54,788 nt of DNA. Origin: an uncultured Candidatus Saccharibacteria bacterium. Its GTDB lineage: Bacteria; Patescibacteriota; Minisyncoccia; Phycocordibacterales; SBAW01. Made by a program: the position numbers and the translations under genes. Location: the NCBI GenBank assembly GCA_964355655.1, contig CAYHDT010000007.1:1-54788 (forward strand), read 5' to 3'. The notes beneath the pieces are model-generated. The model ran no database searches. It had not been told where the DNA came from and was given only the letters and a program-made list of their open reading frames with translations. Shown one piece after another: positions 3,619-45,101 of this stretch (the stretch's first letter is position 1; each line of letters starts with the position of its first letter).

Positions 3619-3622
3619 CTGT

Positions 3623-3658
3623 GTATGATTAGTTGTCCTATAGGATATTTATTCATAC
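3623..3658. repeat. 36-bp imperfect palindrome, copy B
   Basis: GTATGATTAGTTGTCCTATAGGATATTTATTCATAC, 4 bp after the PaaX-like stop. Confidence 0.9.
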
Positions 3659-3721
3659 GATTTTGTAAAGGCGGTTTTTTCATGGTAGCGTAGCGGCAGA
3701 AGTGACAGCATAGAGGAACAT

Positions 3722-3880
3722 ATGCCACACCCGATATTGATCCCGATCGGTTTTCGGCTGCTTATCGCGGCTGCGGCGGCTATCGCCGGCGCGCTGGGTT
3801 TTGGACTTGCCAAGGCGGCTAACAAGAGCAACGACGCGCTCGACGAGGCCGAAAAAGAAAAGGAAGAAAAGAAGCAGTAA
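3722..3880 (+). CDS. Small membrane protein, 52 aa, absent from the ORF track
   Basis: AGAGGA SD; MPHPILIPIGFRLLIAAAAAIAGALGFGLAKAANKSNDALDEAEKEKEEKKQ; hairpin and T-run follow. Confidence 0.65.
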   Translation: MPHPILIPIGFRLLIAAAAAIAGALGFGLAKAANKSNDALDEAEKEKEEKKQ

Positions 3881-4046
3881 CCCCGACTCCCGTCGGGATT
3901 TTCTTTTCCACATATGATTTTCATGAAAATTTTTATATAATTGCAGGAAGTTGTTCATTCGTTCGGACATATGTCGGCCTGATTTCTAGAATCGGGTTTT
4001 TTGTTTGGCACGCACAGGGTAAAACCGCGCGCCAGGCAAAGAAAGT

Positions 4047-4086
4047 AAACGAAAAAGTGTCCCGTGCACGGGACACTTTTTCGTTT
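4047..4086. repeat. 40-bp perfect palindrome
   Basis: AAACGAAAAAGTGTCCCGTGCACGGGACACTTTTTCGTTT equals its own reverse complement. Confidence 0.9.
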
Positions 4087-4179
4087 CCCTGCCTGACTGC
4101 AGGCGAGTTGCATAAAAGTGCCCCTATATGAGCCTCAACGCTCATATAACCGTCACTCCAGTCGTACTGCAAGCAATAC

Positions 4180-4208
4180 TTGCACTCCTCCCTACGCTAG
4201 GTTATAGT
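4180..4208 (+). promoter_or_regulatory. Sigma70-type promoter of the rplC unit
   Basis: TTGCAC-17bp-TATAGT; near-duplicate at 11963. Confidence 0.7.
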
Positions 4209-4285
4209 CCTTGGGACGCAGTAAATAGCGTTGGCCATGTCCCCGGGGTTCGCCCCAAGCAGCGGGACCAATAGACAACAATGAA

Positions 4286-4385
4286 CCCCGTTAGAGATCC
4301 TAGAGATCTTCTACGAATGTCTGTTGAATAGGGTTCAGTGCAGATATGGACAAAACTGAAGATAAAACAAAAATCTCTAACGGGG
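4286..4385. mobile_element. Start-codon-inserted inverted-repeat element, copy 1 (rplC), 100 bp
   Basis: ATGAA[CCCCGTTAGAGAT...ATCTCTAACGGGG]TGAAATTC; TGAA duplicated. Confidence 0.8.
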
Positions 4386-5023
4386 TGAAATTCATCCTTG
4401 GAACAAAAGGCAAGATGACGACCGTATATACCGAAGAAGGTATGGCTTTTGCCGCGACCGTCATTGTTGCTACCCCTAATATCGTTACGCAAATAAAGAC
4501 CGCCGAAAAGGAGGGCTACGCCGCCATGCAAGTGGGCGCGGGCGAAACTACGGACAAGCACGTCAACAAAGCGCAGCTCGGCCATGCCAAAGGCAAGGCG
4601 CTTAAGATGTTCCGCGAAATGCGTCCCCGCCCCGCGACGCGCGGTGGGCAGCCGGACGTGAATTTTCCTGAAGTCGGCTCTACCATAGACGTTTCCGTCT
4701 TTGCGGTAGGAGACAAAGTTACCGTTTCCGCCATTTCCAAGGGCCGCGGCTTCCAAGGTGTCGTTAAGCGCCATGGCTTCCATGGCGGCCCGCGCTCGCA
4801 CGGCCAAAAACACTCCGAGCGCTCCCCGGGTTCTATCGGCGGCGGCGGAGGTCGCGCGGGAGGTCGCGTCGCCAAGGGTATGCGCATGGCCGGCCGCATG
4901 GGGCAGGACCGCGTGTCGGTGCGCAACTTGTCGGTCTTGCAGGTCCATCCCGAAACCAATGAGATTGTGATTTCAGGCGCTGTCCCGGGCCGCAAAGGCA
5001 CCGTCGTCGAAATCAAAGGATAA
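4385..5023 (+). CDS. rplC: 50S ribosomal protein L3 (GTG start; alternative ATG 4346 inside the element)
   Basis: KFILGTKGKMT, SKGRGFQGVVKRHGF, MAGRMG. Confidence 0.97.
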   Translation: MKFILGTKGKMTTVYTEEGMAFAATVIVATPNIVTQIKTAEKEGYAAMQVGAGETTDKHVNKAQLGHAKGKALKMFREMRPRPATRGGQPDVNFPEVGSTIDVSVFAVGDKVTVSAISKGRGFQGVVKRHGFHGGPRSHGQKHSERSPGSIGGGGGRAGGRVAKGMRMAGRMGQDRVSVRNLSVLQVHPETNEIVISGAVPGRKGTVVEIKG

Positions 5024-5028
5024 AAGAT

Positions 5029-5685
5029 ATGGAATCTAAACTTTACAACATGAAGGGCGAAGATGTGGGGAAATTTGACGCGCCCGAAAATATTTTCGGC
5101 CTCAAGTGGAATGCCGACCTGGTGCATCAGGTAGTGCTTGCCATGCAGGCAAACGCCCGCCCGAACGTCGCCCATACTAAAGACCGCGGTGAGGTGCGCG
5201 GCGGCGGCAAGAAGCCTTGGCAGCAGAAGGGCACCGGCCGCGCGCGCCATGGCTCCTCGCGCTCGCCTATCTGGAAGGGCGGCGGCGTTACCCACGGCCC
5301 GCGTAAAAATAAAATCTACGCGCAAAAAATCAACCGCACCATGGCGGCCAAGGCTCTTTTGACGGTACTCTCGCGCAAATACAAAGACGGCGAAGTTATT
5401 TTTGTCGACCAAATTGAGATGGCTTCGCCGAAAGCGGCTGCGGGCAAGGCCGTACTGGCGGCGCTCGGTAAAAACTTTTCCGGATTCTCCAAGCGCAAGA
5501 ACGCCGCGCTTATTGCTTTGCCGTCGCGCAGCGTGCCGACGATCAAGTCCTTCAGCAACTTCGGCAACATTTCGGTCGAAGAGGCCCGCAACCTCAACCC
5601 GCTTTCGGTGCTCTCGGCTAAATATCTGGTCATAGCAGACCCCAAATCCGCGCTTGCCCTGCTCGGCAAGAAGGCCTCTAAATAA
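5029..5685 (+). CDS. rplD: 50S ribosomal protein L4
   Basis: GGGKKPWQQKGTGRARHGS. Confidence 0.98.
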   Translation: MESKLYNMKGEDVGKFDAPENIFGLKWNADLVHQVVLAMQANARPNVAHTKDRGEVRGGGKKPWQQKGTGRARHGSSRSPIWKGGGVTHGPRKNKIYAQKINRTMAAKALLTVLSRKYKDGEVIFVDQIEMASPKAAAGKAVLAALGKNFSGFSKRKNAALIALPSRSVPTIKSFSNFGNISVEEARNLNPLSVLSAKYLVIADPKSALALLGKKASK

Positions 5686-5688
5686 TTT

Positions 5689-5976
5689 ATGAAAAAGCAC
5701 TCCGGACACATACTCATCTCCCCGCGCATCACCGAAAAGGGTGCGTACCTAGCAGAACAAGGCGCCTACATCTTTAATGTCGCTCCGGGCGCCAACAAAA
5801 AGGCCATTGCGGGCGCAATTAAAGAAATCTACGGCGTTTCCGCGCGCAAGGTGACGCTCGTTGCTATCCCGCGCAAGCGCGTCATGACCCGGGGCACGAA
5901 CCGCATGGGACTCACAGCCGGCGGCAAGAAGGCCTACGTCTTCTTGAAGAAAGGCGACAAAATCGATATCGCGTAA
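5689..5976 (+). CDS. rplW: 50S ribosomal protein L23
   Basis: PRITEK, KKAYV; synteny. Confidence 0.96.
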   Translation: MKKHSGHILISPRITEKGAYLAEQGAYIFNVAPGANKKAIAGAIKEIYGVSARKVTLVAIPRKRVMTRGTNRMGLTAGGKKAYVFLKKGDKIDIA

Positions 5977-5984
5977 ACAATCGT

Positions 5985-6833
5985 ATGAAATCCTACAAAC
6001 CTTACACAGACTCCCGCCGCCACATGACAACCGTCACCTTTAAGGGGAAGGTCACTACCAATGAACCGCACAAAGCCCTGACCAAGGGCGGCAAGCGCGA
6101 CTTCGGCCGCAATAACGCGGGCCGCATTACCGTGCGCCATAAGGGCGGGGGGCACAAGCGCCTCTTCCGCGATGTTGATTTTGACTACAAAAAACTCGTC
6201 CCTGCCGTGGTAGAGACGGTGGAGTACGACCCGAACCGCTCCGGCTTTATCGGCCTTTTGCTTTACAAAGACGGGGAACGCCGCTACGCTCTTTTGCCGC
6301 AGTCTGTTAAGGTCGGTGCCGTTATCGAGACCTCGCCGGATGCGCCGGCGACTCCCGGCAACCGCATGCCGCTTAAAAATGTTCCTATCGGCGCATTTAT
6401 TTACAACGTAGAGCTCAAGCCGGGCAACGGCGGCAAATTGGCCCGTTCGGCCGGCACTTCTATCGAGCTTATCGCGCGCGATCAGGGCTACGCCGACCTT
6501 AAAATGCCTTCCAGCGAGGTACGCAAAGTGCTCGAGACCTGCTGGGCGACCATAGGCGAAGTTTCAAACGACGAGCATCACCTGCGTACTATCGGCAAGG
6601 CTGGCCGCAGTCGCTGGCTCGGTATCCGCCCGACGGTGCGCGGCACCGCCATGAACCCGGTAGACCACCCGCACGGCGGAGGAGAGGGCCGCCAGGGCAG
6701 GGGATTGCGCCGCGCAAAGTCGGCTTGGGGCAAGCCTACCGGCAAAGGCCAAAAAACCCGCACGCCGAAGAAATACTCCAACTACTTAATAGTCTCCCGC
6801 CGCAAAGTCGGCAAACGCGGACAGAAGCAATAA
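5985..6833 (+). CDS. rplB: 50S ribosomal protein L2
   Basis: EYDPNRS, MNPVDHPHGGGEG. Confidence 0.99.
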   Translation: MKSYKPYTDSRRHMTTVTFKGKVTTNEPHKALTKGGKRDFGRNNAGRITVRHKGGGHKRLFRDVDFDYKKLVPAVVETVEYDPNRSGFIGLLLYKDGERRYALLPQSVKVGAVIETSPDAPATPGNRMPLKNVPIGAFIYNVELKPGNGGKLARSAGTSIELIARDQGYADLKMPSSEVRKVLETCWATIGEVSNDEHHLRTIGKAGRSRWLGIRPTVRGTAMNPVDHPHGGGEGRQGRGLRRAKSAWGKPTGKGQKTRTPKKYSNYLIVSRRKVGKRGQKQ

Positions 6834-6838
6834 AAGAA

Positions 6839-6868
6839 AAAACGCCCCGAGAAAAATCGGGGCGTTTT
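6839..6868. terminator. Bidirectional terminator after rplB
   Basis: AAAACGCCCCGA-gaaaaa-TCGGGGCGTTTT. Confidence 0.8.
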
Positions 6869-6871
6869 GCG

Positions 6872-7192
6872 TTAATGTTTTTTTGCTGTTGGAGTGAGAG
6901 CGAGTTCGCGCTCGGCAAATTCATCAAGATGCTGGTGAAGTCGGTGGAGCATCATCTGCATCCCGGCCTCCTCTCCCTTTACGAGCTCTGTCGGCAGCAA
7001 GCCGCCTTCGATTATAAGCTTGAGGTCGCCCATCAATCCCAACACGATCGTCGTGTAAAAGCGCATTGCCAGCTTTTCGAGCATCTTATCCAGAAGGCCG
7101 CTTTTATTAACCTTCTTGTAATCTTTTTCCACGCTCTTTGGTATATCCATTCGAATGGTTGCGCCGTCCGGGCCCTTGTATTGTATGTGCAT
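6872..7192 (-). CDS. Hypothetical protein inserted between rplB and rpsS
   Basis: CAGGAG SD before ATG 7192. Confidence 0.6.
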   Translation of the reverse strand: MHIQYKGPDGATIRMDIPKSVEKDYKKVNKSGLLDKMLEKLAMRFYTTIVLGLMGDLKLIIEGGLLPTELVKGEEAGMQMMLHRLHQHLDEFAERELALTPTAKKH

Positions 7193-7301
7193 GATCACTC
7201 TCCTGTGTCTGTCTAGTTGAACTCTATCCAGGCACCGCCACTTCCGCAAGTAAAGAAAAAAGCCCCGGATTTCCGGGGCGTTTCAATGGAACCGCTAGTG
7301 C

Positions 7302-7562
7302 TTAATACACAAACGGCTTGCTGGGGTCGGCCATCTTCTTTGCGTGCAGAAGGTACTCAGGCCGCGGTTGTGGGATGGTCGGCTCGGGGACCTTGCGGTA
7401 CTCGCTCACCGTGCAAGTGACCGAGCCGGCTACGTGCTTGAACCCGGTCCTTTTCTCCCAGGCGGGGAGCGCGGTATCGAAGAAGTCCGCATCGTCGGTG
7501 GCGGCCAGGGTCGCGAACGGCATCGATTGTCCGTGCCGGTAGCGGAAGTTATAGCTGCGCAT
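7302..7562 (-). CDS. Hypothetical protein, 86 aa
   Basis: CAGGAG SD; own terminator GCCCCGGA/TCCGGGGC near 7262-7279. Confidence 0.6.
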   Translation of the reverse strand: MRSYNFRYRHGQSMPFATLAATDDADFFDTALPAWEKRTGFKHVAGSVTCTVSEYRKVPEPTIPQPRPEYLLHAKKMADPSKPFVY

Positions 7563-7726
7563 GCGGTGTCTCCTGTGGGGGGTCGTCTGGAGCTACTATG
7601 TCACAAAGGTCTATTTTTGCAAGGTAGGTTGCGCTCCGCTAGGCTTTGCGGTACATTGTGTGCAACTCCCGTGCTGACGACCTAGGCGCTCGCTGCCTAC
7701 GGCCAGCCGGGGTTTTCAATTGCCAT

Positions 7727-8092
7727 ATGGCCCGCTCGCTTAAAAAAGGTCCTTACGTGGACGAAAAGCTCCTCAAAAAGATTGAGGGCAAGAAGCCTCA
7801 GACGGCTGAGCTTATTAAGACGTGGGCACGCCGCTCGCAGATTGCGCCGGAGATGGTGGGCTTTAAATTCGGCGTCCATAACGGCAAGACACACATCGAG
7901 GTCCTCGTAAGCGAAGATATGGTCGGGCACCGCCTGGGCGAATTCTCTCCCACCAAGAAGTTTGTCCGCCACGGCGGCAAGATGCAGAAGGAAATGGAGA
8001 CCAAGGCCAAAGAGGGCGAGATAGCAGCCGCACAGGCCGCCAAGGCCGCGGCAGATGCCGCTGGCGCCAAGAAGGCAGCTCCCGCAAAATAA
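7727..8092 (+). CDS. rpsS: 30S ribosomal protein S19 with Ala/Lys-rich tail
   Basis: [24 protein letters not shown]. Confidence 0.98.
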
Positions 8093-8098
8093 TATTGT

Positions 8099-8464
8099 AT
8101 GTCCGCCTCATCCGCTAAACTTTCAAACTATCGCCAGGCTCCGCGCAAAGTGCGGCTGATTGCCGACCTTGTGCGCGGCAAGTCCGTTACGCACGCGCTT
8201 GCTATGCTGACCATGCTCCCCAAGCGCGGCAGCGAGCCGATGGCCAAGCTTATAAAATCGGCCGCGGCCAATGCTAAAGATGTTTCCGCCGCTGACCTGT
8301 ACATATCGAAGATAGAGGTCAATGGCGGCATCGTCTTTAAGCGCTCCATGCCGAGGGCTCGCGGCCGCGCGGCGCAGATACTCAAGCGCACCAGCCACAT
8401 CACTCTTTCCTTGGACAAAAAACTTCCTAAAAAGGAAAAACCGGCTAAGACCGCCGCAAAATAA
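8099..8464 (+). CDS. rplV: 50S ribosomal protein L22
   Basis: PRKVRLIAD, PRARGRA, KRTSHI. Confidence 0.98.
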   Translation: MSASSAKLSNYRQAPRKVRLIADLVRGKSVTHALAMLTMLPKRGSEPMAKLIKSAAANAKDVSAADLYISKIEVNGGIVFKRSMPRARGRAAQILKRTSHITLSLDKKLPKKEKPAKTAAK

Positions 8465-8467
8465 TTT

Positions 8468-9133
8468 ATGTCTAAAGTAGTACACCCATTTGCACACAGG
8501 CTCGGCACGATACGCGATTGGCGCCATCGCTGGTTTGCCACGGGCCCGGCGTATCAGGCAAATCTGAAGACCGGTGTTCTCTTGCGCGAATTCCTTTTTA
8601 AAGAGCTCCGCGGCATGTACGTCGGCGGTATTGAGCTTGAGCTCGGCAAGCAGCTGCGCATCATCATCAAGACCAGCCGGCCCGGGCTCATTATCGGCCG
8701 GAGCGGCGAGGGCTCGACCAAGCTGCGCAACTCTATCGCCAAATTCTTGGCTGGCAAGAAGATAGTAGTGCCGGAAATAAAGCTCGATATCGAGGAAATC
8801 CGCAGCCCCGAGAGCAACGCGGCTATCGTGTCTTATATGGTCGCCGAAAGCTTGGAGAAGCGCCTGCCGTTCCGCCGCGTGCTCAAGCAAACCATCGAAA
8901 AGGTGATGGCTAACCGCGACGTCAAAGGCGTGCGCATCACGCTCTCAGGCATGCTCGGTGGCGGCTCTATGTCGCGCACTGAGACGCTGAAGAAAGGCCG
9001 CGTGCCGCTCCAGACCATCCGTGCCGACGTTGACTTCCATAAAGAGCGCGCCAACCTGCCGCTCGGCGTCTTGGGTATCAAGGTGTGGGTATACAAGGGC
9101 GATATCTTCTCGAAATCCCAAAAGGACAAATAA
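8468..9133 (+). CDS. rpsC: 30S ribosomal protein S3
   Basis: RPGLIIGR, GRVPLQTIRADVD, GVLGIKVW. Confidence 0.98.
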   Translation: MSKVVHPFAHRLGTIRDWRHRWFATGPAYQANLKTGVLLREFLFKELRGMYVGGIELELGKQLRIIIKTSRPGLIIGRSGEGSTKLRNSIAKFLAGKKIVVPEIKLDIEEIRSPESNAAIVSYMVAESLEKRLPFRRVLKQTIEKVMANRDVKGVRITLSGMLGGGSMSRTETLKKGRVPLQTIRADVDFHKERANLPLGVLGIKVWVYKGDIFSKSQKDK

Positions 9134-9139
9134 AAACAT

Positions 9140-9562
9140 ATGTTGTTTCCTAAAAAAGTAAAATTCCGCAAGTCGCACACGATGCGCCGCAACCCCAAAG
9201 CTCAAAAGCTGGCTACCCGGGGTGTTACGGTCGCGTTCGGCTCGCACGGATTGAAGGCCATTACCGAGGCGCGCGTTCGCTCCAACCAAATCGAGTCGGC
9301 ACGCAAGGTTATTGCCCGCAGTTTAGGCAAGACCGGCAAGCTCTGGGTGCGCATTTTCCCCGACAAGCCTTTTACCAAAAAACCCCCGGAGGTTAAGCTC
9401 GGCAAAGGCAAGGGCGACCCGGTCGGTTATGAGGTGCAGGTGTGGCCCGGCCGCGTTCTGTTCGAGGTAGACGGGGTAGGGGATGCGCTGGCCGTCATGA
9501 CGTTGAAAAAAGCCGCCGCCAAATTGCCGCTGAAAGCTAAGGTCGTCGCCCGTACACACTAA
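9140..9562 (+). CDS. rplP: 50S ribosomal protein L16
   Basis: WVRIFPDKP, GKGKG, AAAKLP. Confidence 0.98.
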   Translation: MLFPKKVKFRKSHTMRRNPKAQKLATRGVTVAFGSHGLKAITEARVRSNQIESARKVIARSLGKTGKLWVRIFPDKPFTKKPPEVKLGKGKGDPVGYEVQVWPGRVLFEVDGVGDALAVMTLKKAAAKLPLKAKVVARTH

Positions 9563-9564
9563 TT

Positions 9565-9759
9565 ATGGCAAAGAAACTTGATCTAAAAAACCACACGGAA
9601 GTTGAACTCGCCAAACTTGCGATGACCAAGCGTGAGGAGCTCCGTGTCTTGCGTTTTAACGTCGCAGGTAGTAAAAACCGTGATGTGAAGCAGGCTTCGA
9701 AGCTCCGCAAGGATATAGCCCGCGCACTGACGGCGTTGACCGCGGCAAAGAAAAAATAA
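9565..9759 (+). CDS. rpmC: 50S ribosomal protein L29
   Basis: LRF, LRKDIAR; synteny. Confidence 0.92.
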   Translation: MAKKLDLKNHTEVELAKLAMTKREELRVLRFNVAGSKNRDVKQASKLRKDIARALTALTAAKKK

Positions 9760-9760
9760 C

Positions 9761-10006
9761 ATGGAAACTACTACTAAAAAAAAGGAATTCCGCGGCAAGG
9801 TTGTCTCGGACAAAATGAAGGACACCGCCGTGGTGGCAGTTTCACGGTTCGTGATGCACCCCAAGTACAAGAAGTTTATGAAGAAGACCTCAAAATTTTC
9901 CGTGCATAATCCCGGCAACAAAGCCAAGGAGGGGGACATGGTTACCATCCGGAGCTGCCGCCCTCTCTCCAAAACGAAACACTTTGAAATAGTGTTCGAT
10001 AAATAA
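9761..10006 (+). CDS. rpsQ: 30S ribosomal protein S17
   Basis: GKVVSDKMKDT, HPKYKK, RPLSKTK. Confidence 0.98.
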   Translation: METTTKKKEFRGKVVSDKMKDTAVVAVSRFVMHPKYKKFMKKTSKFSVHNPGNKAKEGDMVTIRSCRPLSKTKHFEIVFDK

Positions 10007-10010
10007 TTAT

Positions 10011-10391
10011 ATGATCCAAGACCGCTCACTCGTAGTCGTTGCAGACAATTCCGGCGCAAAAATCGGACGCATTTTCAAGATACCCGGCTCGTCAAAGAAG
10101 CGCTATGCCGAGATAGGGGAGCTGGTGGTCTTTTCGGTGCAGACGGCCGAGCCGCGCAAGGCAGTTAAGAAGAAAGACGTACTCATCGGCGTCGTGGTGC
10201 GCCAGCGCAAGCCCTTTCGCCGCAAGGACGGCAGCTATATCCGCTTCGACGAAAACGCGGTAGTGGTGCTCGAGACGGGCGGCAAGGACAAAAAAGAGCC
10301 GAAAGCGGGCCGCATCTTCGGCCCTATCCCGCGCGAGCTGCAGGAGCTCGGCTATCAGACGATAATCTCCCGCGCGCCGGAAGTCGTATAA
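10011..10391 (+). CDS. rplN: 50S ribosomal protein L14
   Basis: VADNSGAK, IRFDENA, RIFGP. Confidence 0.98.
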   Translation: MIQDRSLVVVADNSGAKIGRIFKIPGSSKKRYAEIGELVVFSVQTAEPRKAVKKKDVLIGVVVRQRKPFRRKDGSYIRFDENAVVVLETGGKDKKEPKAGRIFGPIPRELQELGYQTIISRAPEVV

Positions 10392-10395
10392 TTGT

Positions 10396-10623
10396 ATGCA
10401 TACTCTCCACGTAAAAAAAGGCGACACGGTAGTGGTACTCTCCGGAGTCGACAAGGGCAAGTCCGGCAAGGTTACGCGCACCTTTCCGAAAAAGAACATG
10501 GTCATGGTGGAGGGTGTAGGGAAGCGCACCAAGCACCAAAAGCCGCGCAAAGCCGGCCAGTCGGGCCAGATTGTCGAGAAATTCCATCCTATTAACGCGA
10601 GCAAGGTGGCCCTCAAGAAATAA
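10396..10623 (+). CDS. rplX: 50S ribosomal protein L24, short (75 aa)
   Basis: KKGDTVVVLSGVDKGKSG KOW motif. Confidence 0.95.
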   Translation: MHTLHVKKGDTVVVLSGVDKGKSGKVTRTFPKKNMVMVEGVGKRTKHQKPRKAGQSGQIVEKFHPINASKVALKK

Positions 10624-10628
10624 CCTCT

Positions 10629-11168
10629 ATGCCTAAACTTATTCAAGAACAACAGAAGACGGCCTTCAGTGCCCTTAAAGGAGACTTCGGGTGGAAAAAC
10701 CTCATGCAAAGCCCCCGCCTTGTTAAGGTGGTTATTTCCGTCGGTGTCGGTAAAATGACCAAGGACAAAGGCAAAGTGGAGTTGGTCGCCGACCGCCTGG
10801 CAAAAATCACCGGACAAAAGCCCGTATCCCGAGGCGCCAAGAAAGCTATTTCCACTTATAAAACCCGCGTGGGGGACAAGATAGGCTACCAGATTACTTT
10901 GCGCGGCAAGCGCGCGGAAGACTTTCTCAACCGCCTCGTGCATATCGCGCTCCCGCGCACCAAGGACTTTAAAGGCGTCAGCGTCGCAGGTATTGATGAA
11001 ATGGGCAACTACACGCTCGGCATCAAGGAGCATACCGTCTTCCCCGAAACAGCAGACGAGGATATTAAAGACATCTTTGGTATGGCGGTTACGGTGGTCA
11101 CCACCGCAAAGAATAAAAAAATGGCCGAAGCCTACCTCCGCCACCTCGGCTTCCCGTTTAAGAAGTAA
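10629..11168 (+). CDS. rplE: 50S ribosomal protein L5
   Basis: ITGQKP, IALPRTKDFKG, GNYTLGIKE. Confidence 0.98.
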   Translation: MPKLIQEQQKTAFSALKGDFGWKNLMQSPRLVKVVISVGVGKMTKDKGKVELVADRLAKITGQKPVSRGAKKAISTYKTRVGDKIGYQITLRGKRAEDFLNRLVHIALPRTKDFKGVSVAGIDEMGNYTLGIKEHTVFPETADEDIKDIFGMAVTVVTTAKNKKMAEAYLRHLGFPFKK

Positions 11169-11288
11169 TTTTTAGAAAAATATAAAAGGCTGGGCCAATA
11201 GGCAACTACCGGACAACACATAGAACACGAATAAACTTATCCCCTGTGTCGTTTGCATATTTAGAACGACGCTATACTATTGTTGTAT

Positions 11289-11918
11289 ATGGATAAATTT
11301 GAAGGTGTGAAGTTAGGGCACATTAAAGGGCAGGAGGCCACGGTTACCGAGAAAGGAAATAAAGAAATTGAGAATCAGGACAAGGCGCGTGAGATGGCAA
11401 AAACAGAAGACTTCTATCACGAACAGGCAGGGCGGTTTCAGGAGTATCTCAAAGACCCTAAGGCATTCTCGAAAACTCTCGAGTGGAGACCGAAAGTTGC
11501 CGACATCAATGTCCTTTACTCAGCGGAATATTTTAAGAGGCTTGTGCAATCAGGGATTACGCCGGACGATCTGCGCATTATCGGTGACAGAGTAGCGGAG
11601 GTTCGAGGATCGGCTGTTGATTATGAAGAGACAGTTCGTGAAAAATCAACAGTACAACTGAAAATCGAAGCCGCTGTATTCACGGTATTAAATTTTAAGC
11701 ACGGAATGTCTGGTCTAGCGGGAGCAATAAAGAACCCTTCTATATCATGGGCCATAACGGAGCAGACAATTAACCGGGACAATCAAAAACTAGAAGTGTG
11801 GCTCAAAAAAGAGGTTGCTGAGCGTGAATTGATAGCCCGCGATGTGGAACAAGCATTCGGCCCGGAGGCAGCAGCCAGAGTCCGTATAAAAGACATTCCT
11901 TTTTTGCAGGTGAAATAG
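11289..11918 (+). CDS. Hypothetical protein inserted between rplE and rpsN
   Basis: About 210-aa ORF, lower GC, TATACT upstream. Confidence 0.7.
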   Translation: MDKFEGVKLGHIKGQEATVTEKGNKEIENQDKAREMAKTEDFYHEQAGRFQEYLKDPKAFSKTLEWRPKVADINVLYSAEYFKRLVQSGITPDDLRIIGDRVAEVRGSAVDYEETVREKSTVQLKIEAAVFTVLNFKHGMSGLAGAIKNPSISWAITEQTINRDNQKLEVWLKKEVAERELIARDVEQAFGPEAAARVRIKDIPFLQVK

Positions 11919-11962
11919 TAATAACCAAATCGATAAATAGGGTCAGACTCCATTTATGGAAT

Positions 11963-11991
11963 TTGCATTTCTCCTTACGCTAGGTTATAGT
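11963..11991 (+). promoter_or_regulatory. Promoter of the rpsN-secY unit
   Basis: TTGCAT-17bp-TATAGT; shares TACGCTAGGTTATAGTC with the rplC promoter. Confidence 0.7.
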
Positions 11992-12125
11992 CGTCTCAGC
12001 CCTCAAGGGCTCCTTTTTTCTGATAGGTGCCGCTTAGTCATCAGCTTTGCTGAAATCAAGCAAAGTGGCGAGGCAAACCCTCAGAATCGTAACTCTCTAG
12101 GCAAGGGGAGTAACCACCTTTAAAG

Positions 12126-12311
12126 ATGGCTAAAAAATCCACAGTTGCACGTTCTAACAAACCCCCGAAGTTTAAATCCCGGGTTGTTCGCCGTTGCTTC
12201 CGCTGCGGGCGCAAGCGCGCCTTTATGCGCGACTTCGGCATGTGCCGCGCGTGCTTTAGAGAGGCCGCCAACGAAGGGTTGATCCCCGGCGTCCGCAAAT
12301 CATCCTGGTAA
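12126..12311 (+). CDS. rpsN: 30S ribosomal protein S14, type Z (zinc-binding)
   Basis: 61 aa, [20 protein letters not shown]. Confidence 0.98.
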
Positions 12312-12315
12312 TCAT

Positions 12316-12696
12316 ATGGTAAACGACCCTATCTCAGACTTGCTCGTCCGCCTCCAAAACGCTTCCCGCGTGGGTAAGGCGTCCGTGTCGGTGCCCTTCT
12401 CTAAAATGAAGCTCGCCATTGCAGACGTACTTTCTAAAGAAGGCTACGTGGGCGCGCCCGACAAAAAAAATTACGCGCTCACTATCCCGCTCTCGTATAA
12501 AAACGGCCGCCCCACTATTACCGGGGTAAAGCGCATCTCTAAGCTCTCGCGCCGCACCTACATGGGCGTGCGCGATGTACGCCCCGTCCGCCACGGTCAC
12601 GGCCTCCTTGTCCTCTCGACCCCTAAAGGCATCATGACCGGCGCGCAGGCCAGGGCGCACCGTGTCGGCGGCGAAGCGTTGTTCGAAATTTGGTAA
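12316..12696 (+). CDS. rpsH: 30S ribosomal protein S8
   Basis: DPISDLL, LSTPKG, GGEALFEIW. Confidence 0.97.
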   Translation: MVNDPISDLLVRLQNASRVGKASVSVPFSKMKLAIADVLSKEGYVGAPDKKNYALTIPLSYKNGRPTITGVKRISKLSRRTYMGVRDVRPVRHGHGLLVLSTPKGIMTGAQARAHRVGGEALFEIW

Positions 12697-12701
12697 ATTA
12701 T

Positions 12702-13235
12702 ATGTCACGACTTGCTAAACGCCCTATTGCGATACCCGCCAAAACCGAAGTTACTGTTTCGGGCGGTTTGCTTGTGGTCAAAGGACCCAAAGGAACTCTG
12801 CAAAAGCCGATACACCGCATGGTCGGTATTGAGGTCGGCGCCGAAGGCGTACAGGTTTCTCCCAAAGGCTCGTCTATCGAGTCTCGCGTGCTTATTGGCA
12901 CGTACGCATCGCATGTCAAAAACATGATGAGCGGCGTCACTACCGGATTCAGCAAAAAGCTTCTGATTGAGGGAGTCGGCTACAAGTGGGACGTGCAGGG
13001 GAAGACGCTCAACCTCGCACTCGGATTTTCTCATCCGGTTAAGGTGGCGATCCCCGAGGGTCTTATGGTTAAGGCCGACAAGGGCGCCCTCGATATTTCG
13101 GGCTTCGACAAAGAATTGGTCGGGCAATTTGCCGCAGACATTCGCGCGATGAAGAAGCCCGAGCCGTATAAAGGCAAAGGCATCCGCTACGACGGCGAAG
13201 TCATCCGCCGCAAGCAGGGCAAGAAGGCCGCATAA
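12702..13235 (+). CDS. rplF: 50S ribosomal protein L6
   Basis: MSRLAKRPI, LGFSHP, PEPYKGKGIRY. Confidence 0.98.
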   Translation: MSRLAKRPIAIPAKTEVTVSGGLLVVKGPKGTLQKPIHRMVGIEVGAEGVQVSPKGSSIESRVLIGTYASHVKNMMSGVTTGFSKKLLIEGVGYKWDVQGKTLNLALGFSHPVKVAIPEGLMVKADKGALDISGFDKELVGQFAADIRAMKKPEPYKGKGIRYDGEVIRRKQGKKAA

Positions 13236-13243
13236 ATTGATAT

Positions 13244-13573
13244 ATGTTAAACCGTGAACGCAGACACAACCGAATACGCGCCAAAATTGAAGGGACATCC
13301 GCGCGCCCGCGCTTGGCGGTGTATAAATCTAATCGCTTCCTGCACGCGCAGATTATCGACGACGAAGCGGGGAAGACTCTGGTAGCCGGCTCCACCAAAG
13401 AGATGGGCAAGGATAAAAAAACCGACGCCGCGGGCAAGCTCGGCGCCGAGCTTGCCAAGCGCGCCAAAGCGGCGGGTATTACCAAAGTCGTCTTCGACCG
13501 CGGCGGATTCCGCTACATAGGCCGGATTGCAACGCTCGCGGCGGCCGCGCGTAAGGCGGGTTTGGAATTTTAA
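13244..13573 (+). CDS. rplR: 50S ribosomal protein L18
   Basis: RPRLAVYKSN, VVFDRGG. Confidence 0.98.
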   Translation: MLNRERRHNRIRAKIEGTSARPRLAVYKSNRFLHAQIIDDEAGKTLVAGSTKEMGKDKKTDAAGKLGAELAKRAKAAGITKVVFDRGGFRYIGRIATLAAAARKAGLEF

Positions 13574-13578
13574 ATTAT

Positions 13579-14205
13579 ATGGATGATGAACAAAAAATAA
13601 TCGAGACACCCGCAAGCGCCGAGCCCTCTTCGGATGTTTCGACGGAACTGACTCCCGAGCCTGTTGCCGCGCCTGCGGCAGCCGCGCCTCAACGCGCTGT
13701 GCGCGGACGCGGCGGTCGCGACCAGCGTGGAGGCGCCGGCGGACGCCGCCCTTCCAGCCGTCCGCCGCGCGCCAAGAGCGAGTACGACCAAAAGATGATA
13801 ACTATCCGCCGCGTCTCGCGCACCGTCGCCGGCGGACGCCGTTTCTCCTTCTCGGTGGCTCTGATTATAGGCAACAAAAAAGGCAAGGTAGGCGTGGGGC
13901 TGGGCAAAGCAGGGGACACTACGCTTGCGATAGACAAAGCGGTCCGCAACGCAAAGAAAAACATGATTACGGTCAACCTGACCAAGGACAACTCGATTGC
14001 GCACCAAGTGTCGGCAAAATACACTGCCTCGCGGGTTGAGCTCATGCCGGTGCGCGGCCGCGGACTCGTTGCCGGCTCCTCGGTGCGCCCCGTGTTGGAA
14101 CTTGCCGGGATAACCAACACCGTCGCGAAGATCCACTCCGGCAGCAAGAATGGGCTTAACAACGCCCGCGCCGCGATTGAAGCTTTGAAAAGTCTCAAAG
14201 CTTAA
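13579..14205 (+). CDS. rpsE: 30S ribosomal protein S5
   Basis: RRVSRTVAGGRRFSF, VGVGLGKA. Confidence 0.98.
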   Translation: MDDEQKIIETPASAEPSSDVSTELTPEPVAAPAAAAPQRAVRGRGGRDQRGGAGGRRPSSRPPRAKSEYDQKMITIRRVSRTVAGGRRFSFSVALIIGNKKGKVGVGLGKAGDTTLAIDKAVRNAKKNMITVNLTKDNSIAHQVSAKYTASRVELMPVRGRGLVAGSSVRPVLELAGITNTVAKIHSGSKNGLNNARAAIEALKSLKA

Positions 14206-14206
14206 T

Positions 14207-14268
14207 AAATAACAATAATCAAATCACAAATAACAAATTTGAATTTTGGAACTTGAGATTTGAAATTT
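14207..14268. repeat. Inverted pair of short heptamer tandem repeats
   Basis: AAATAAC/AATAATC/AAATCAC/AAATAAC followed by complementary-like ATTTTGG/AACTTGA/GATTTGA. Confidence 0.55.
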
Positions 14269-14274
14269 ACCCTT

Positions 14275-14709
14275 ATGCAACTAAATCAATTACAACGGAA
14301 AACGCCGAATAAGGGTATTAAGCGCGTGGGTCGCGGCGGCGGTCGCGGTAAAACCTCCGGCCGCGGCACCAAAGGCCAGAAAGCCCGCGCCGGACATCGT
14401 ATCCGCCCGGACGTCCGCGAAAAGCTCAAAAAGCTTCCTAAGTTGCGCGGGTACGCCTTTAATTCCATCGAAATGAAGCCGGCTGTTGTTAACCTAGCGG
14501 TTCTTGAGAGCATGTTTGCCGCGGGTGACGCTATTACTCCGGAGATACTCCGCGAGCGTGGCGCAGTCCGCGCGCGCAAGGGTGTGGCAGTGCGCGTGAA
14601 GATACTGGGCGACGGCGAGCTGACAAAAAAACTCGTCATAACCGGCTGCAGCGTTTCTGCCGCCGCATCAGCTAAGATTGAAAAGGCGGGCGGGTCTGTC
14701 GGCAAATAA
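14275..14709 (+). CDS. rplO: 50S ribosomal protein L15
   Basis: RVGRGGGRGKTSGRGTKGQKARAG, VKILGDG. Confidence 0.97.
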   Translation: MQLNQLQRKTPNKGIKRVGRGGGRGKTSGRGTKGQKARAGHRIRPDVREKLKKLPKLRGYAFNSIEMKPAVVNLAVLESMFAAGDAITPEILRERGAVRARKGVAVRVKILGDGELTKKLVITGCSVSAAASAKIEKAGGSVGK

Positions 14710-14716
14710 CCATGAA

Positions 14717-14800
14717 TCCCGTTAGAAATCAAAACTTTATGAATTCGGACATTATCAAAATAACAACGGAAATGCTCGGCATTTCCTATTTCTAACGGGA
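14717..14800. mobile_element. Start-codon-inserted element, copy 2 (secY), 84 bp
   Basis: ATGAA[TCCCGTTAGAAAT...ATTTCTAACGGGA]TGAACGG; TGAA duplicated. Confidence 0.85.
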
Positions 14801-16071
14801 TGAACGGTTTCGCTCAAAAACTTAGCATGCTCTTTTCGGACAAAGGGCTTCGCAACCGCCTGCTTTTTGTGGTCGGGGCGTTTGTTGTCTTCCGCGTGCT
14901 GGCAACCATCCCCATTCCGGGCATCAATGCCTCGCAACTGGAACTTTTTTTCAATAACAATCAGTTTTTCGGCCTGCTCAACCTCTTTTCCGGCGGCGGG
15001 CTTTCCAACCTTTCACTCGTGATGCTCGGCGTAGGCCCTTACATCACCGCCAGTATCGTCATGCAGCTCCTCACGCTCATGATTCCGCGCTTTAAGCAGC
15101 TCTACCAAGAGGAGGGCGAAGCCGGCCGGGCGAAGTTCAGCATGTACAGCCGGTGGCTCACACTCCCTATTGCCGCTGTGCAGGGTATCTCTTTCCTTAT
15201 CATCCTCGAGCGTCAGGGCGTGTTGCCGGCGCTCGGACTTTTTCCCTTTGCAGTTAACCTTATTACCGTCATTGCAGGCTCTCTCTTGCTTATGTGGATA
15301 GGCGAACTTATATCCGAGTACGGGCTCGGCAACGGTGTATCGCTTATCATCTTCGCGGGCATCGTGGCGGGGTACCCTGCTCAAGTAAGCCAGCTCCTCT
15401 TTACGTTTGACTCTTCGCAAATACCGCTGTATCTGGCGTTTATCGCCGCGACGCTCGCGGTTATTGCGGCGGTGGTGTTTGTTACCGAGGCCGAGCGTCC
15501 TATCCCGGTCACTTACGCCAAGCGCGTCCGGGGGATGAAATTCTTTGGCGGCACGTCGACCTACTTGCCGCTGCGGCTCAATCAGGCGGGGGTTATCCCG
15601 ATTATCTTCGCGCTGTCCTTCCTGCTTATCCCGCAGATGTTCGCGAGCTTCTTCGCGACCTCTTCGGTAGCGCTGTTGGCCAATATATCCAACTGGATGC
15701 TCGGGCTGCTGCAGAACTTACCGGTCTACGGCGCGCTCTACTTTATCCTCGTATTCCTCTTTACCTACTTCTACACGGCGGTCACCTTTGACCCGCATCA
15801 GATAGCGGAGAACCTGCAAAAGAACGGCGCCTTTATCCCCGGCGTGCGCCCCGGCCAATCCACGCAAGAGTACCTCGGCCACGTTATCACGCGTATTACC
15901 TTCGTCGGGGCGCTCTTTCTCGGCCTTATCGCGGTGCTGCCTATCGTCATGCAGTCGTTGACCGGTATCCAGTCCCTGGCGCTGGGCGGTACAGCGCTCC
16001 TCATTGTCGTCCAGGTCATCCTCGACCTCGCGCGCCGCATCGATGCCCAGATCTCTATCCGGGAGTACTAA
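14800..16071 (+). CDS. secY: Preprotein translocase SecY
   Basis: LGVGPYITASI, GLGNGVSLIIF, FIPGVRPG; multi-TM. Confidence 0.99.
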   Translation: MNGFAQKLSMLFSDKGLRNRLLFVVGAFVVFRVLATIPIPGINASQLELFFNNNQFFGLLNLFSGGGLSNLSLVMLGVGPYITASIVMQLLTLMIPRFKQLYQEEGEAGRAKFSMYSRWLTLPIAAVQGISFLIILERQGVLPALGLFPFAVNLITVIAGSLLLMWIGELISEYGLGNGVSLIIFAGIVAGYPAQVSQLLFTFDSSQIPLYLAFIAATLAVIAAVVFVTEAERPIPVTYAKRVRGMKFFGGTSTYLPLRLNQAGVIPIIFALSFLLIPQMFASFFATSSVALLANISNWMLGLLQNLPVYGALYFILVFLFTYFYTAVTFDPHQIAENLQKNGAFIPGVRPGQSTQEYLGHVITRITFVGALFLGLIAVLPIVMQSLTGIQSLALGGTALLIVVQVILDLARRIDAQISIREY

Positions 16072-16091
16072 ACTTTGGTATTGTAGGAGGC

Positions 16092-16664
16092 GTGGATATA
16101 AATACTTTTTTGATGGTGGGGCGGCCGGGTTCGGGCAAGGGGACGCAGGCTAAATTATTAGCGGACAAAATAGGCGCTCAACTTTTTTCGACCGGCGACA
16201 ACTTTCGTGCTTGGGCCGCAGGAGAGAGCTACGTTGGTAAGCGTCTTAAGGGCGCTATGGAGGCCGGTGAACTGCTTCCTAATTGGCTCGCGTCATACAC
16301 GTTTGAGCAAGTAATTTTTAGTCTTGAGCCCGAGAACAAAATCGTGTTCGAGGGGGCTTGCCGCACGGGGCCCGAGGCGGTTTTGTTTGACGAAATTTCA
16401 AAGTGGCTACCGCGTCCTTACACGGCTGTCTATCTTAATATTTCAGAAGAAGAGGCATGGAAGCGTTTATTGCAGAGGTCCAAGAACAGTGGCCGCGCCG
16501 ACGATAGTGAGGACGTTATCCGCACTCGTTTTGAGGAATATAAAAAAAAGAACGAGGCGGTTATAGAGCATTTTCGCTCTGTGGGCACGCTCGTTGAGGT
16601 AAACGGAGAGCAGTCTATAGAGTCAACGCACCGCGATGTGCTTAAAGCGCTTAATCTCCAATGA
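16092..16664 (+). CDS. adk: Adenylate kinase, short LID
   Basis: GRPGSGKGTQ, STGD, GRADD; follows secY. Confidence 0.9.
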   Translation: MDINTFLMVGRPGSGKGTQAKLLADKIGAQLFSTGDNFRAWAAGESYVGKRLKGAMEAGELLPNWLASYTFEQVIFSLEPENKIVFEGACRTGPEAVLFDEISKWLPRPYTAVYLNISEEEAWKRLLQRSKNSGRADDSEDVIRTRFEEYKKKNEAVIEHFRSVGTLVEVNGEQSIESTHRDVLKALNLQ

Positions 16665-16748
16665 TCCCGTTAGAGACTACATCTGTATGATTACGAAAAT
16701 TACTCAAATAACCGACGGAAATGCTTGCATTTCCTGTCTCTAACGGGA
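16665..16748. mobile_element. Start-codon-inserted element, copy 3 (map), 84 bp
   Basis: ATGA[TCCCGTTAGAGAC...GTCTCTAACGGGA]TGATAGCG; interior homologous to copy 2. Confidence 0.85.
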
Positions 16749-17509
16749 TGATAGCGACCACTCCCGAAGAACTAAAGGCTCTGCGTGCCGCCGGCAAAAT
16801 ACTTTCCGGCGTGCTTATTGATGTCGCCGCGCTCTGCAAAGAAGGGGCCAACACCGCCGAGCTCGACTTGGCGGCCGAGCACGCAATCGTTTCGCGGGGC
16901 GCGGTTCCGGCGTTTCTTAATTATCAGCCCGAGGGTGCGGCGTATCCGTATCCTGCGACGCTCTGCGTTTCCATCAACGACGAGGTGGTGCACGGCATCC
17001 CGAACGAAAAACGTATTTTGCGCGACGGCGACATACTTTCTATAGACGCGGGGCTCAACTACCAAGGTTACTTTGTCGATGCCGCGCGTACGTTATGCAT
17101 CGGCAAAGGAGACGAGCAGGCGCACAAGCTGATTACCGCCACCAAAGAGGCGCTTGCGAGCGCTATAGGCGTCGCGCGCGTGGGGAATCATGTGGGGGAC
17201 ATTGGGGCGGTGGTGGCGGGCATTGCCGCCAAATACCGGCTCGGCATAGTGCGCGACCTCGGCGGGCACGGGGTGGGCAAGGCGGTGCACGAAAAGCCTT
17301 TTATCGCCAACGACGGCAAGCGCGGCGAGGGCGAGGAAATAATCGCGGGGATGGTGCTTGCTATCGAACCAATGCTCGCCGAGGGGAAGGGCGACATTGT
17401 TTTGGACGAGGACGAGTGGACCTACCGCATGGAGGACGGCAAACGCGCCGCGCACTTTGAAGAGACGGTACTTATTACCGAAACCGGCGCCGAAATTCTC
17501 ACGGCGTAA
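16748..17509 (+). CDS. map: Methionine aminopeptidase type I
   Basis: CVSINDEVVHGIP, GHGVG, AIEPM, AHFEET. Confidence 0.97.
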   Translation: MIATTPEELKALRAAGKILSGVLIDVAALCKEGANTAELDLAAEHAIVSRGAVPAFLNYQPEGAAYPYPATLCVSINDEVVHGIPNEKRILRDGDILSIDAGLNYQGYFVDAARTLCIGKGDEQAHKLITATKEALASAIGVARVGNHVGDIGAVVAGIAAKYRLGIVRDLGGHGVGKAVHEKPFIANDGKRGEGEEIIAGMVLAIEPMLAEGKGDIVLDEDEWTYRMEDGKRAAHFEETVLITETGAEILTA

Positions 17510-17526
17510 GGTGCTAGACTTCGGGT

Positions 17527-45080: not shown

Positions 45081-45101
45081 CAATTGTAGAAGATAAGGTG
45101 C

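Follow-up and report, generated by a model that had tools for sequence, protein, structure and literature searches.

Inverted-repeat inserts at the starts of rplC, secY and map in a Candidatus Saccharibacteria genome and their relation to a small GIY-YIG-encoding element

Inserts at the starts of rplC, secY and map

The window analyzed here comprises positions 1 to 54,788 (nucleotides, nt) of contig CAYHDT010000007.1 of GenBank assembly GCA_964355655.1, which belongs to an uncultured Candidatus Saccharibacteria bacterium with a genome of 863 kb in 24 contigs (97% complete; G000 in the following, while other G numbers denote relatives). Three of its genes, rplC, secY and map, each carry an insert of 84-100 bp directly after their first four to five bases. 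In this study, we describe these inserts and the element family from which they probably derive. A first-pass annotation made from the sequence alone had described the three inserts as inverted-repeat elements located at start codons. This description was confirmed letter for letter, except that the terminal inverted repeats, perfect in all three copies, measure 14 bp instead of 13 bp. The features of the three sites, all on the forward strand, are as follows.

4281-4285, +: left-over rplC start ATGAA; TGAA 4282-4285 is the left copy of the target duplication
4281-4331, +: relic open reading frame (ORF) at the rplC start, 16 codons, MNPVRDPRDLLRMSVE and a stop, opened by the left-over ATG
4286-4385, +: element copy 1 (rplC), 100 bp, C-G closing pair, without a nuclease ORF
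within 4286-4385, +: terminal repeats of copy 1, CCCCGTTAGAGAT...ATCTCTAACGGGG, 14 bp, perfect
4386-4389, +: right TGAA copy at rplC
4385-5023, +: rplC (L3; PF00297) from the rebuilt GTG 4385-4387; orthologues align from residue 1
14712-14716, +: left-over secY start ATGAA; TGAA 14713-14716 is the left duplication copy
14712-14795, +: secY relic ORF, 27 codons; its stop is a TAA in the right repeat, 4 nt 5' of the rebuilt ATG
14717-14800, +: element copy 2 (secY), 84 bp, T-A closing pair
within 14717-14800, +: inner hairpin of copy 2, GGAAATGC..GCATTTCC, adjoining the right repeat
14801-14804, +: right TGAA copy at secY
14800-16071, +: secY (PF00344, 2.7e-103) from the rebuilt ATG 14800-14802
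16661-16664, +: original adk-map overlap ATGA; the adk stop TGA 16662-16664 is retained as the left duplication copy
16661-16690, +: map relic ORF, 9 codons, opened by the overlap ATG
16665-16748, +: element copy 3 (map), 84 bp, T-A closing pair, built as copy 2
16749-16751, +: right TGA copy at map
16748-17509, +: map (methionine aminopeptidase of M24 type; PF00557) from the rebuilt ATG 16748-16750

At all three sites TGA(A) is present again downstream of the insert, and the last base of the element together with the TG of this right copy forms a new GTG or ATG, as had been noted before. The junctions read caaca ATGAA / C CCCGTTAGAGAT ... ATCTCTAACGGG G / TGAA ATTC at rplC, where the G of the rebuilt GTG is the element base and the TG belongs to the right TGAA copy; ATGAA / T CCCGTTAGAAAT ... 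ATTTCTAACGGG A / TGAA CGG at secY; and, from the adk-map overlap, ATGA / T CCCGTTAGAGAC ... GTCTCTAACGGG A / TGA TAGCG at map. The repeats of the rplC copy are 100% complementary over 14 bp, and the pairing is longer if the flanks are counted. Pfam assigned the ORFs downstream of the inserts to L3, SecY and an M24 peptidase, and those upstream of the secY and map inserts to L15 and adenylate kinase (ADK). All three hairpins fold far better than shuffled sequences (z -5.56 for rplC, -5.93 for secY and -6.95 for map). Exact 9-mer ends occur six times in the window against 0.42 expected. With one mismatch allowed the number of ends was 13, which is not above that in shuffles (mean 10.6), and thus only exact, paired ends were counted.

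The uninterrupted forms of the three starts were found in relatives of the same genus, at the sequences predicted by removing the element and one duplication copy. L3 was located in 29 of 31 genus genomes and the operon was compared in 16 of these. The rplC site had no insert in any of the 16, including the closest relative (L3 92% identical), and reads ...caaca ATGAAATTC (or ATGAAGTT; GTTAAATT in one relative), the uninterrupted start being ...gaccaatagacaac ATGAAATTCATCCTTGG and close variants of it. The secY site was empty in 8/8 genus relatives (ATGAAx, ATGGxx, ATAAAC or GTGAAC), and the map site in 6/6 (ATGAT, GTGAT in one). Hence, the element and one copy of TGA(A) were gained in the lineage of the window. 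In old insertions shared between genomes (glyS in G000 and G024; rplD in G024 compared with G001), only the rebuilt ATG is still intact and the upstream one has decayed, indicating that the downstream codon is the working start; translation of rplC, secY and map simply begins at the rebuilt GTG or ATG.

The filled sites were also recovered in assembled contigs of four DNA runs, one of which may be the source sample and is therefore not independent. Contigs of runs X1 and X4 bridge the filled secY site and contigs of X1 the filled map site, without differences. Many run contigs share the repeat ends only and then diverge (joint 14730>14784 in 9, 6, 6 and 3 contigs of the four runs; loose ends at 14712 and 14804, about 0.42-0.47 agreement); these were read as other element copies in the communities. 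Among 15 of the 42 run-contig joints, none skips the whole element with matching flanks, although contigs drop rare variants and this observation has no bearing on excision.

Distribution and target sites of the element family

In the whole G000 assembly we detected 20 end pairs and 19 complete copies. Sixteen of the latter lie exactly at the starts of ORFs of 37-621 amino acids (aa), on either strand and in the arrangement ATGnn(T)/core/ATGnn (hand count; an automatic count of 17 included a hairpin internal to gatB), for which the probability under random placement is 2.5e-43. The motif TCTAACGGGRTG, which combines the ends with RTG, has a patchy occurrence in 13 of 41 relatives, with 0-1 matches for reversed-pattern controls. 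Genus mates have 0-3 matches, and four genomes from other families of the same order have 10-17. Shares of copies at starts were computed where nearly all exact-end places were fetched, leaving those of G001, G008, G020 and G024 unused as the search pattern already contained RTG. Copies lie at the starts of long ORFs in 19/20 cases in G033, 9/12 in G037, 6/9 in G038 and 2/3 in G029. The proposal that the initiation codon is the safe harbour of the element thus describes most copies in G000, G033, G037 and G038, but it is too narrow, since copies were also found in -35-like and extended -10 boxes and within gatB and rarA/mgsA.

When the complementary closing pair (T-A or C-G) is counted as element, the duplication in 67 start-codon copies measures 4 nt in 40, 3 nt in 14, 5 nt in two and 2 nt in two, and is unrecognizable in nine. 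The duplicated words vary with the host gene (TGGG, TGAG, TGTA, TGGA, TTGA and others). Together with the empty sites, this agrees with the earlier view of a dispersed, non-autonomous inverted-repeat family with a short target duplication.

Three complete copies of G000 lie elsewhere. A 27-nt minimal hairpin in gatB (C3 9593-9619; L203:994-1020, minus strand) is read through in frame as PVRKQASNG (...SQH-PVRKQASNG-AGAED...), and a 57-nt copy in rarA/mgsA (C5 37026-37082; L204:727-783), flanked by duplicated GCGCGC (Ala-Arg), is likewise read through in frame as PVRDKSAKRTADRSRISNG. The third one (C8 5939-6015; L206) splits a -35-like box, GTTGAC/core/GTTGACA. A second class of copies of this kind is present in G027, where those with C-G closing pairs split -35-like boxes as TTGAC/core/GTTGAC(A), while others read xTGATAT/core/ATGATATAAT and have an extended -10 box (TGATATAAT) rebuilt (-35-like or extended -10 copies: L053, L054, L055, L057, L058, L063; L035, L037, L042, L062). 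At these sites promoter elements are regenerated instead of start codons.

Tandem arrays with two or three units per start codon, in the form unit-ATGAAT-unit-ATGAAT-unit-ATGAAA, were found in G037 (L068:1580-2021; L069, reverse strand; L075) and also at L162 and in protein P0070, as expected if a left-over ATGAA is struck again. The inner units end in ...TTTCGGAGGG rather than ...TTCTAACGGG, which places GGAGG right before the ATG, and the composite array recurs at three genes.

Upstream of six G000 copies (C5 42228, C20 4017, C4 34748, C1 57507, C1 89900 and C2 32018) a TATACT/TAAAAT-like box is followed by the ATG after 6-9 nt, with no evident Shine-Dalgarno sequence, which suggests that many genes of this genome are leaderless.

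Long copies and their GIY-YIG nuclease gene

The first-pass annotation had proposed to look for long copies in which the family ends surround an enzyme gene, and such copies do exist. At the start of a murG-like gene in G037, a 278-nt copy with the family ends (L068:165-442) encodes, from the left-over host ATG, a protein reading MNPVRDHSFMHYVYLLKS...RRFLSLTG up to its stop. Two copies of 269-275 nt in G038 (L079, L081) and one in G027 (L118) have the same ends and the same ORF arrangement. The GIY-YIG domain PF01541 was found in the three long-copy ORFs that were scanned (G037 L068, G038 L079 and L081; E 2.5e-16, 3.7e-14 and 1.7e-10), and the window copies are without it. The long-copy protein has 92-95 aa, with the GIY-YIG domain at residues 10-77 and no added DNA-binding domain. 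Its best solved relatives, similar over the domain, are the UPF0213/YhbQ-type proteins 1zg2 (E 8.7e-10) and 1ywl (3e-5) and the structure-specific nuclease SLX1 (7wme, 0.0098), and the catalytic domain of I-TevI is a weak match (1mk0, E 0.064). A homodimer prediction scored 0.36 against a mark of 0.42 and was used neither way.

A search limited to proteins of 51-165 aa retrieved 2259 homologues at E<=1e-5, annotated in their sources as 'GIY-YIG nuclease family protein', 'excinuclease ABC subunit C' or 'putative endonuclease' (Kaiserbacteria, Terrybacteria, Paceibacterota and others). Among the best 120, 91 have exactly 94 aa, 99 begin with M-x-P-V-R (x being N in 80 and S in 15 of the 120) and 103 end in LSLTG. 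No Met is present at residues 6-12 in 69 of the 99 M-x-P-V-R homologues, which leaves as the only ATG the one inherited from the host gene.

In species-representative genomes 522 loci encode a relative of this protein, and the best 80 were analyzed; these are spread over many Patescibacteria lineages and also include records of Omnitrophota, Elusimicrobiota and Ratteibacteria. In 80/80 loci the repeat pair is 269-282 nt apart (mode 275) and the interval is filled by a single nuclease ORF of about 94 aa. Both 9-mer ends are letter-perfect in 69/80, a number used in place of a repeat-codon table that came from loci pre-filtered for exact ends and was circular in this respect. The repeats are coding sequence: the left one codes for P-V-R-D and the right one for L-S-L-T-G-stop, the 9-mer ends encoding P-V-R and L-T-G, while at internal positions invariant Thr and Gly are encoded by all four codons. 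The ORF is intact in 58/80 loci, the copy lies at the start of a long ORF in 56/80, and in 43/80 an intact ORF at a start has an upstream ATG in frame. The TGA stop of the nuclease overlaps the rebuilt ATGA or GTGA in 49 long copies.

The duplication of the long start copies is 4 nt in 45/56, and TGAA in 40. A duplication of 4 nt puts the ORF in frame with the host ATG, while one of 3 nt does not, and the ratio of 4-nt to 3-nt duplications is 45:2 in long copies vs 40:14 in short ones (Fisher p 0.005), as expected if the frame matters only to coding copies. The closing pair of the 80 long copies is T-A in 64, C-G in 15 and likely mis-set in one; T-G and C-A never occur. A 5-nt duplication around an element consisting of the core only was rejected, because the closing pair is always complementary. 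T-A pairs were found at starts in 54/64 cases, and C-G pairs at other sites in 13/15, mostly in non-Patescibacteria records (p = 3e-7).

A consensus fold was calculated from 56 intact long copies, leaving out of the 58 two (L181, L182) whose ends had been set with four mismatches. It consists of a 13-bp outer stem and a 14-bp inner stem, both within the coding sequence, the latter pairing the codons of L-R-K-R-F-K with those of R-L-K-R-F-L. Paired cells amount to 96.1% vs 88.6% in shuffles (reached in 0/500), and the covariation score is 0.232 vs 0.091 in shuffles and at most 0.096 in slid versions. In 1509 cells there are 148 double vs 7 single-side changes, and G-U intermediates are almost absent. 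Such a Watson-Crick-only covariation is unlike that of a usual RNA helix and points to a constraint at the DNA level, either a foldback or cruciform or the copying of one arm from the other.

In alignments, the window copies match the long ones in their left 17-20 nt and in their right 25-45 nt (...TTTCCTRTCTCTAACGGG), the middle being missing, and their inner hairpin GGAAATGC..GCATTTCC is a collapsed form of the inner inverted repeat of the long copies. The copies at secY, map and rpmJ share one build. Two copies at different genes (C11 and C20) are nonetheless 94% identical, showing that short copies move or are copied, and the 19 copies of G033 have a constant length, a covarying second stem and diverged loops (median identity 0.50). 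Judged from these alignments, the window inserts would be internally deleted, non-autonomous relatives of the ~277 bp element, that is, MITEs (miniature transposable elements with inverted repeats). By a crude score, 37 short copies are oriented relative to the host gene as the nuclease ORF is and three oppositely, while 23 are unclear, which favours this derivation. An end-coordinate search in G000 and five relatives found no kilobase-long copies with the family ends.

Other small GIY-YIG elements were also observed. A sister-type element with its own ATG and different ends (CCTGTTGTAGATTT.../CCCGTAGTAGAATTT...) is present in G000 (C10 ~29381-29660, L205), where it is the only small GIY-YIG element of its kind, and in G037 (L113, L112); the one at L113 sits at a gene start in the arrangement ATGAGT/.../ATGAGAAAA. 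In G033 (L121) and G037 (L116), small GIY-YIG ORFs immediately precede tRNA genes, and the first tRNA bases are repeated before the ORF (GCCGCC in L121, a longer stretch in L116), which is the same pattern of entry at the 5' end and duplication on an RNA gene.

Other hairpins and palindromes were noted in G000. Six diverged Y1_Tnp (IS200/RAYT-like) genes of 224-243 aa are present (window 20020-20694, minus strand; C4 52493-53179; C2; C6; two in C8), several of them flanked on both sides by their own REP-like hairpins (e.g., GACGTAAGTCAGACTTACGTC, GAGGGAAGTCGGACTTCCCTC), and these hairpins are a second, unrelated system. A perfect palindrome of 20+20 nt (AAACGAAAAAGTGTCCCGTG and its complement) lies at window 4047-4086, about 200 nt upstream of the rplC insert. 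Besides, a palindrome of ~36 nt, GTATGAWT..TGTCCTATAGGA..TTATTCATAC, was found at window 2984-3019, 3623-3658 and 45101-45138 and at C13 ~26284, with four to five intergenic occurrences in the genome.

Proposed mechanism, competing explanations and known systems

Considering these findings, we hypothesize that the window inserts are probably MITEs of a family of start-codon-borrowing GIY-YIG elements. This account draws on the anatomy of the copies, their insertion polarity, the target duplication, the empty sites, the long copies with their reading frames and the DNA-type covariation of two stems, all of which were observed directly. The family would be bounded by 14-bp inverted repeats (YCCCGTTAGAGAY...RTCTCTAACGGGR), and its full form of ~277 bp would be a single gene for a GIY-YIG nuclease of ~94 aa, UPF0213/SLX1-like. 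The element would enter a host gene behind its first 4-5 bases (typically ATGAA), with duplication of 3-5 bases (mode 4, mostly TGAA). The promoter, ribosome entry and ATG of the host would then drive the nuclease ORF (M-N-P-V-R...), so that the nuclease would be made from the host ATG, while the last base of the element (A, rarely G) and the duplicated TG would provide a new in-frame start for the host gene. As the TGA of the nuclease overlaps the rebuilt ATGA, a coupled restart of host translation is possible, and the host gene in long copies probably restarts by termination-reinitiation. The window copies would have lost the nuclease and kept the repeats, the inner stem and short relic ORFs. 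We lean slightly towards the nuclease being the mobility enzyme itself, which would recognize a hairpin or cruciform that the repeats form in the DNA and make the cuts for movement.

Several observations weigh against this account. The link of the putative mobility enzyme to mobility is the co-linearity of its gene with the repeats. Characterized GIY-YIG homing enzymes leave short 3' overhangs, which alone would not produce duplications. The duplication length varies from 2 to 6 nt, which a fixed staggered cut would not predict, and some copies have unequal flanking words (ATGAGT...ATGAAC, as in L124, L140 and L154, ATGTAT...ATGAAC and ATGGT...ATGAC; long copies L124, L140, L154 and L151, short copies L016 and L082); either the upstream copy has mutated or part of the flank travels with the element. 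A full-length cognate nuclease was not found in G000 or G033, each with ~19 short copies; both have only the sister-type small GIY-YIG with different ends. The orientation of short copies relative to the host gene is a weak test, with 23/63 unclear. Gene starts were judged by simple ORF rules rather than by a trained gene finder, only 7/26 fetched copies of G027 lie at start codons, and the C-G copies lie mostly off starts, indicating that start-codon residence is a habit of lineages and no fixed rule.

The preference for start codons can be explained in two ways. On the one hand, a TGA(A) preference, the loss of harmful insertions and the need of the ORF for a host ATG may be sufficient, without direct sensing of initiation sites, an explanation to which we give an even chance. 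Among the occupied G000 starts, ATGA is present in 12/16 vs 33% in the background (p 7e-4) and ATGAA in 9/16 vs 16.5% (p 3e-4), as determined with a crude gene model, so a TGA(A) preference exists. On the other hand, we regard it as possible, though more tentatively, that sequence preference and selection are insufficient and that an active mechanism senses initiation regions, through melted promoter or leaderless-start DNA or through the nascent nuclease in cis. While 134 ATGAA sites lie at crude starts and 249 outside ORFs, 9/9 copies of ATGAA type are at starts (p 8e-5), although small genes and miscalled starts inflate the class outside ORFs. Where duplications at starts differ from TGAA they still always follow ATG, the other targets (TTGAC -35 boxes and TGATATAAT extended -10 boxes) are expression signals too, the TATACT-like box 6-9 nt before the ATG of many host genes suggests leaderless starts, and short copies, which need no expression, are equally biased. 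However, rplC, secY and map lie inside operons and lack an evident promoter, the ATGA/ATGAA enrichment also fits a plain sequence preference, and in-frame intragenic survivors exist.

That another enzyme moves the elements in trans, either a DDE transposase or a Y1/HUH enzyme of the IS200/RAYT kind, with the GIY-YIG protein as a passenger or as a helper in retention or homing, seems unlikely. Nucleases do promote retention or homing in some IS200/IS605 elements, Y1_Tnp (PF01797) is present in all five element-rich genomes searched (six in G000), a Watson-Crick-only covariation would fit an enzyme that reads DNA hairpins, and G000 and G033 are rich in short copies without a cognate nuclease. 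Yet the six Y1 genes of G000 are each flanked by different hairpins of their own (of ...AAGTCnGACTT... type in several) and not by CCCGTTAGA ends. The duplicated bases vary with the host gene, and the duplication is borne out by the empty sites, while Y1 enzymes are not known to duplicate their targets. We also rejected a reading after IS200/IS605, with the right 'duplicate' brought along by the element, as many different duplicated words match the host on both sides, a few unequal pairs excepted. DDE_Tnp_1 (PF01609) and rve (PF00665) were not found in G000 or G027, nor was the TnpB zinc-ribbon family in any of the five element-rich genomes. Moreover, in all 80 long loci the nuclease ORF takes up the interval of 269-282 nt and includes the repeats in its codons. 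The short copies of G000 and G033 are either orphans or moved by the sister-type small GIY-YIG element present in both.

The first-pass annotation had further considered a domestication of the inserts as translational control. That the hairpins are a conserved RNA device serving the host (translational control, ribosome shunt or processing site), rather than mobile DNA, we consider very improbable. The stable hairpins do pair the A or G of the start codon, the mini-ORF stops at a TAA 4 nt before the ATG in 6/16 G000 start copies and at the ATGA overlap in one, and the same genes are occupied in different families (ssb in G000, G033 and G027; rpmI-like in G033 and G038). Nevertheless, the sites are empty in every genus relative examined and the occurrence is patchy (13/41), the stems covary without G-U intermediates (7 single-side vs 148 double changes), the fates of the mini-ORFs are heterogeneous, copies also lie within promoters and ORFs, and the long copies encode a nuclease. 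An Rfam scan of positions 3500-17800 at E<=1 gave no match at the three sites and only two weak unrelated ones elsewhere. Excision of the insert from the mRNA (intron-like, or by RNase III and a ligase), which would restore ATGAA in the RNA and render the rebuilt start irrelevant, is suggested by the direct repeats around a perfect hairpin, from which symmetric excision would restore the original reading, but it is hardly credible given the lack of intron-family similarity in the Rfam scan, the loss of the upstream ATG in old copies that always retain the downstream one, and a long-copy ORF that spans both repeats and ends on the host ATGA, which is sensible only if the insert is translated.

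The start-codon-borrowing elements resemble several known systems. Like the MITEs Correia and Nezha, the short copies have perfect terminal inverted repeats, a short duplication relative to the empty sites, many dispersed copies and no enzyme gene (relic ORFs of 9-27 codons), and they share their ends with a longer relative. In contrast to MITEs, this relative encodes a GIY-YIG nuclease instead of a DDE transposase, the copies lie in first codons and not between genes, and the repeats of the parent are coding sequence. Insertion sequences of the DDE type differ in the interior, which here is a GIY-YIG ORF, and neither PF01609 nor PF00665 was found in G000. Free-standing and intron-borne GIY-YIG homing endonucleases such as I-TevI and the Seg proteins of T4 are likewise selfish genes beside host genes with a GIY-YIG nuclease as sole product. 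Homing elements copy themselves into one cognate allele by repair, whereas here hundreds of unrelated genes are targets, inverted repeats (80/80) and 4-nt duplications (45/56) are present, the 94 aa leave no separate DNA-binding domain, and deletion derivatives multiply. The small GIY-YIG proteins UPF0213/YhbQ and SLX1 have the size and domain of the element nuclease, but they are ordinary chromosomal genes not known to carry repeats; UPF0213 has no established function, and SLX1 depends on SLX4.

IS200/IS605 elements with PATEs and REP/RAYT systems also use DNA hairpins as apparent functional ends and have small non-autonomous derivatives. They rely on a Y1 HUH enzyme and subterminal hairpins and are not known to duplicate the target, while the present family has a single foldback formed by terminal repeats and a real duplication, and the Y1 flanks of G000 carry other hairpins. 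Rickettsia palindromic elements and integrative elements that rebuild tRNA ends are similar in being tolerated within genes because the frame or the gene end is restored, as in our two in-frame read-through copies; they have no known relation in sequence to the present family, and here the restored part is the initiation codon, made of one element base and the duplication. GIY-YIG ORFs have been reported in non-intron insertions of rRNA genes of bacteria of the candidate phyla radiation (CPR), seemingly not spread by homing (PMC11270868). These share the phylum and the enzyme family with our element, although that study covers rRNA genes only and its main text does not contain 'inverted repeat' or 'start codon'. 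We observed one such case in G033 (L111; C2 6671-7458), a small GIY-YIG ORF flanked by 12-nt inverted repeats inside the 5' part of a 16S rRNA gene.

Full-text literature searches, which covered the main text of PMC11270868, returned no description of such a start-codon element, in line with the first-pass annotation, which did not recognize a described family. MITEs, free-standing GIY-YIG homing genes and IS200-type hairpin elements each fail at least one defining feature tested, and on this basis the family is rated new in kind, provided that the putative mobility enzyme is indeed the nuclease. We therefore put forward, as a tentative proposal for which the chances are somewhat below even, a new class of autonomous prokaryotic transposon, spread in Patescibacteria, Omnitrophota and Elusimicrobiota, in which the sole protein, a GIY-YIG nuclease of 94 aa, would be a transposase acting on a foldback of its own coding sequence. 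Without expression signals of its own, such an element would capture the host start and return a rebuilt one coupled via ATGA, and it would give rise to MITE swarms at the starts of essential genes. At ~277 bp it would be the smallest autonomous prokaryotic transposon known to us.

If the nuclease is the mobility enzyme, GIY-YIG would join the catalytic classes of DNA transposases, with a new lower size limit for autonomous elements; if it is only a passenger, the family would represent a new MITE variant with an unusual target. Sharing of the initiation codon would mean that silencing of the element by the host would silence an essential gene too, a parasitic strategy of which we have seen no description. 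For genome annotation, hundreds of genes for 'GIY-YIG nuclease family protein' would be mobile elements, many true starts would lie 60-280 bp downstream of the apparent ATG, and short ORFs beginning with M-N-P-V-R... would be relics. Overall, these elements may provide a natural setting in which to study termination-reinitiation and leaderless initiation in hard-to-culture organisms.

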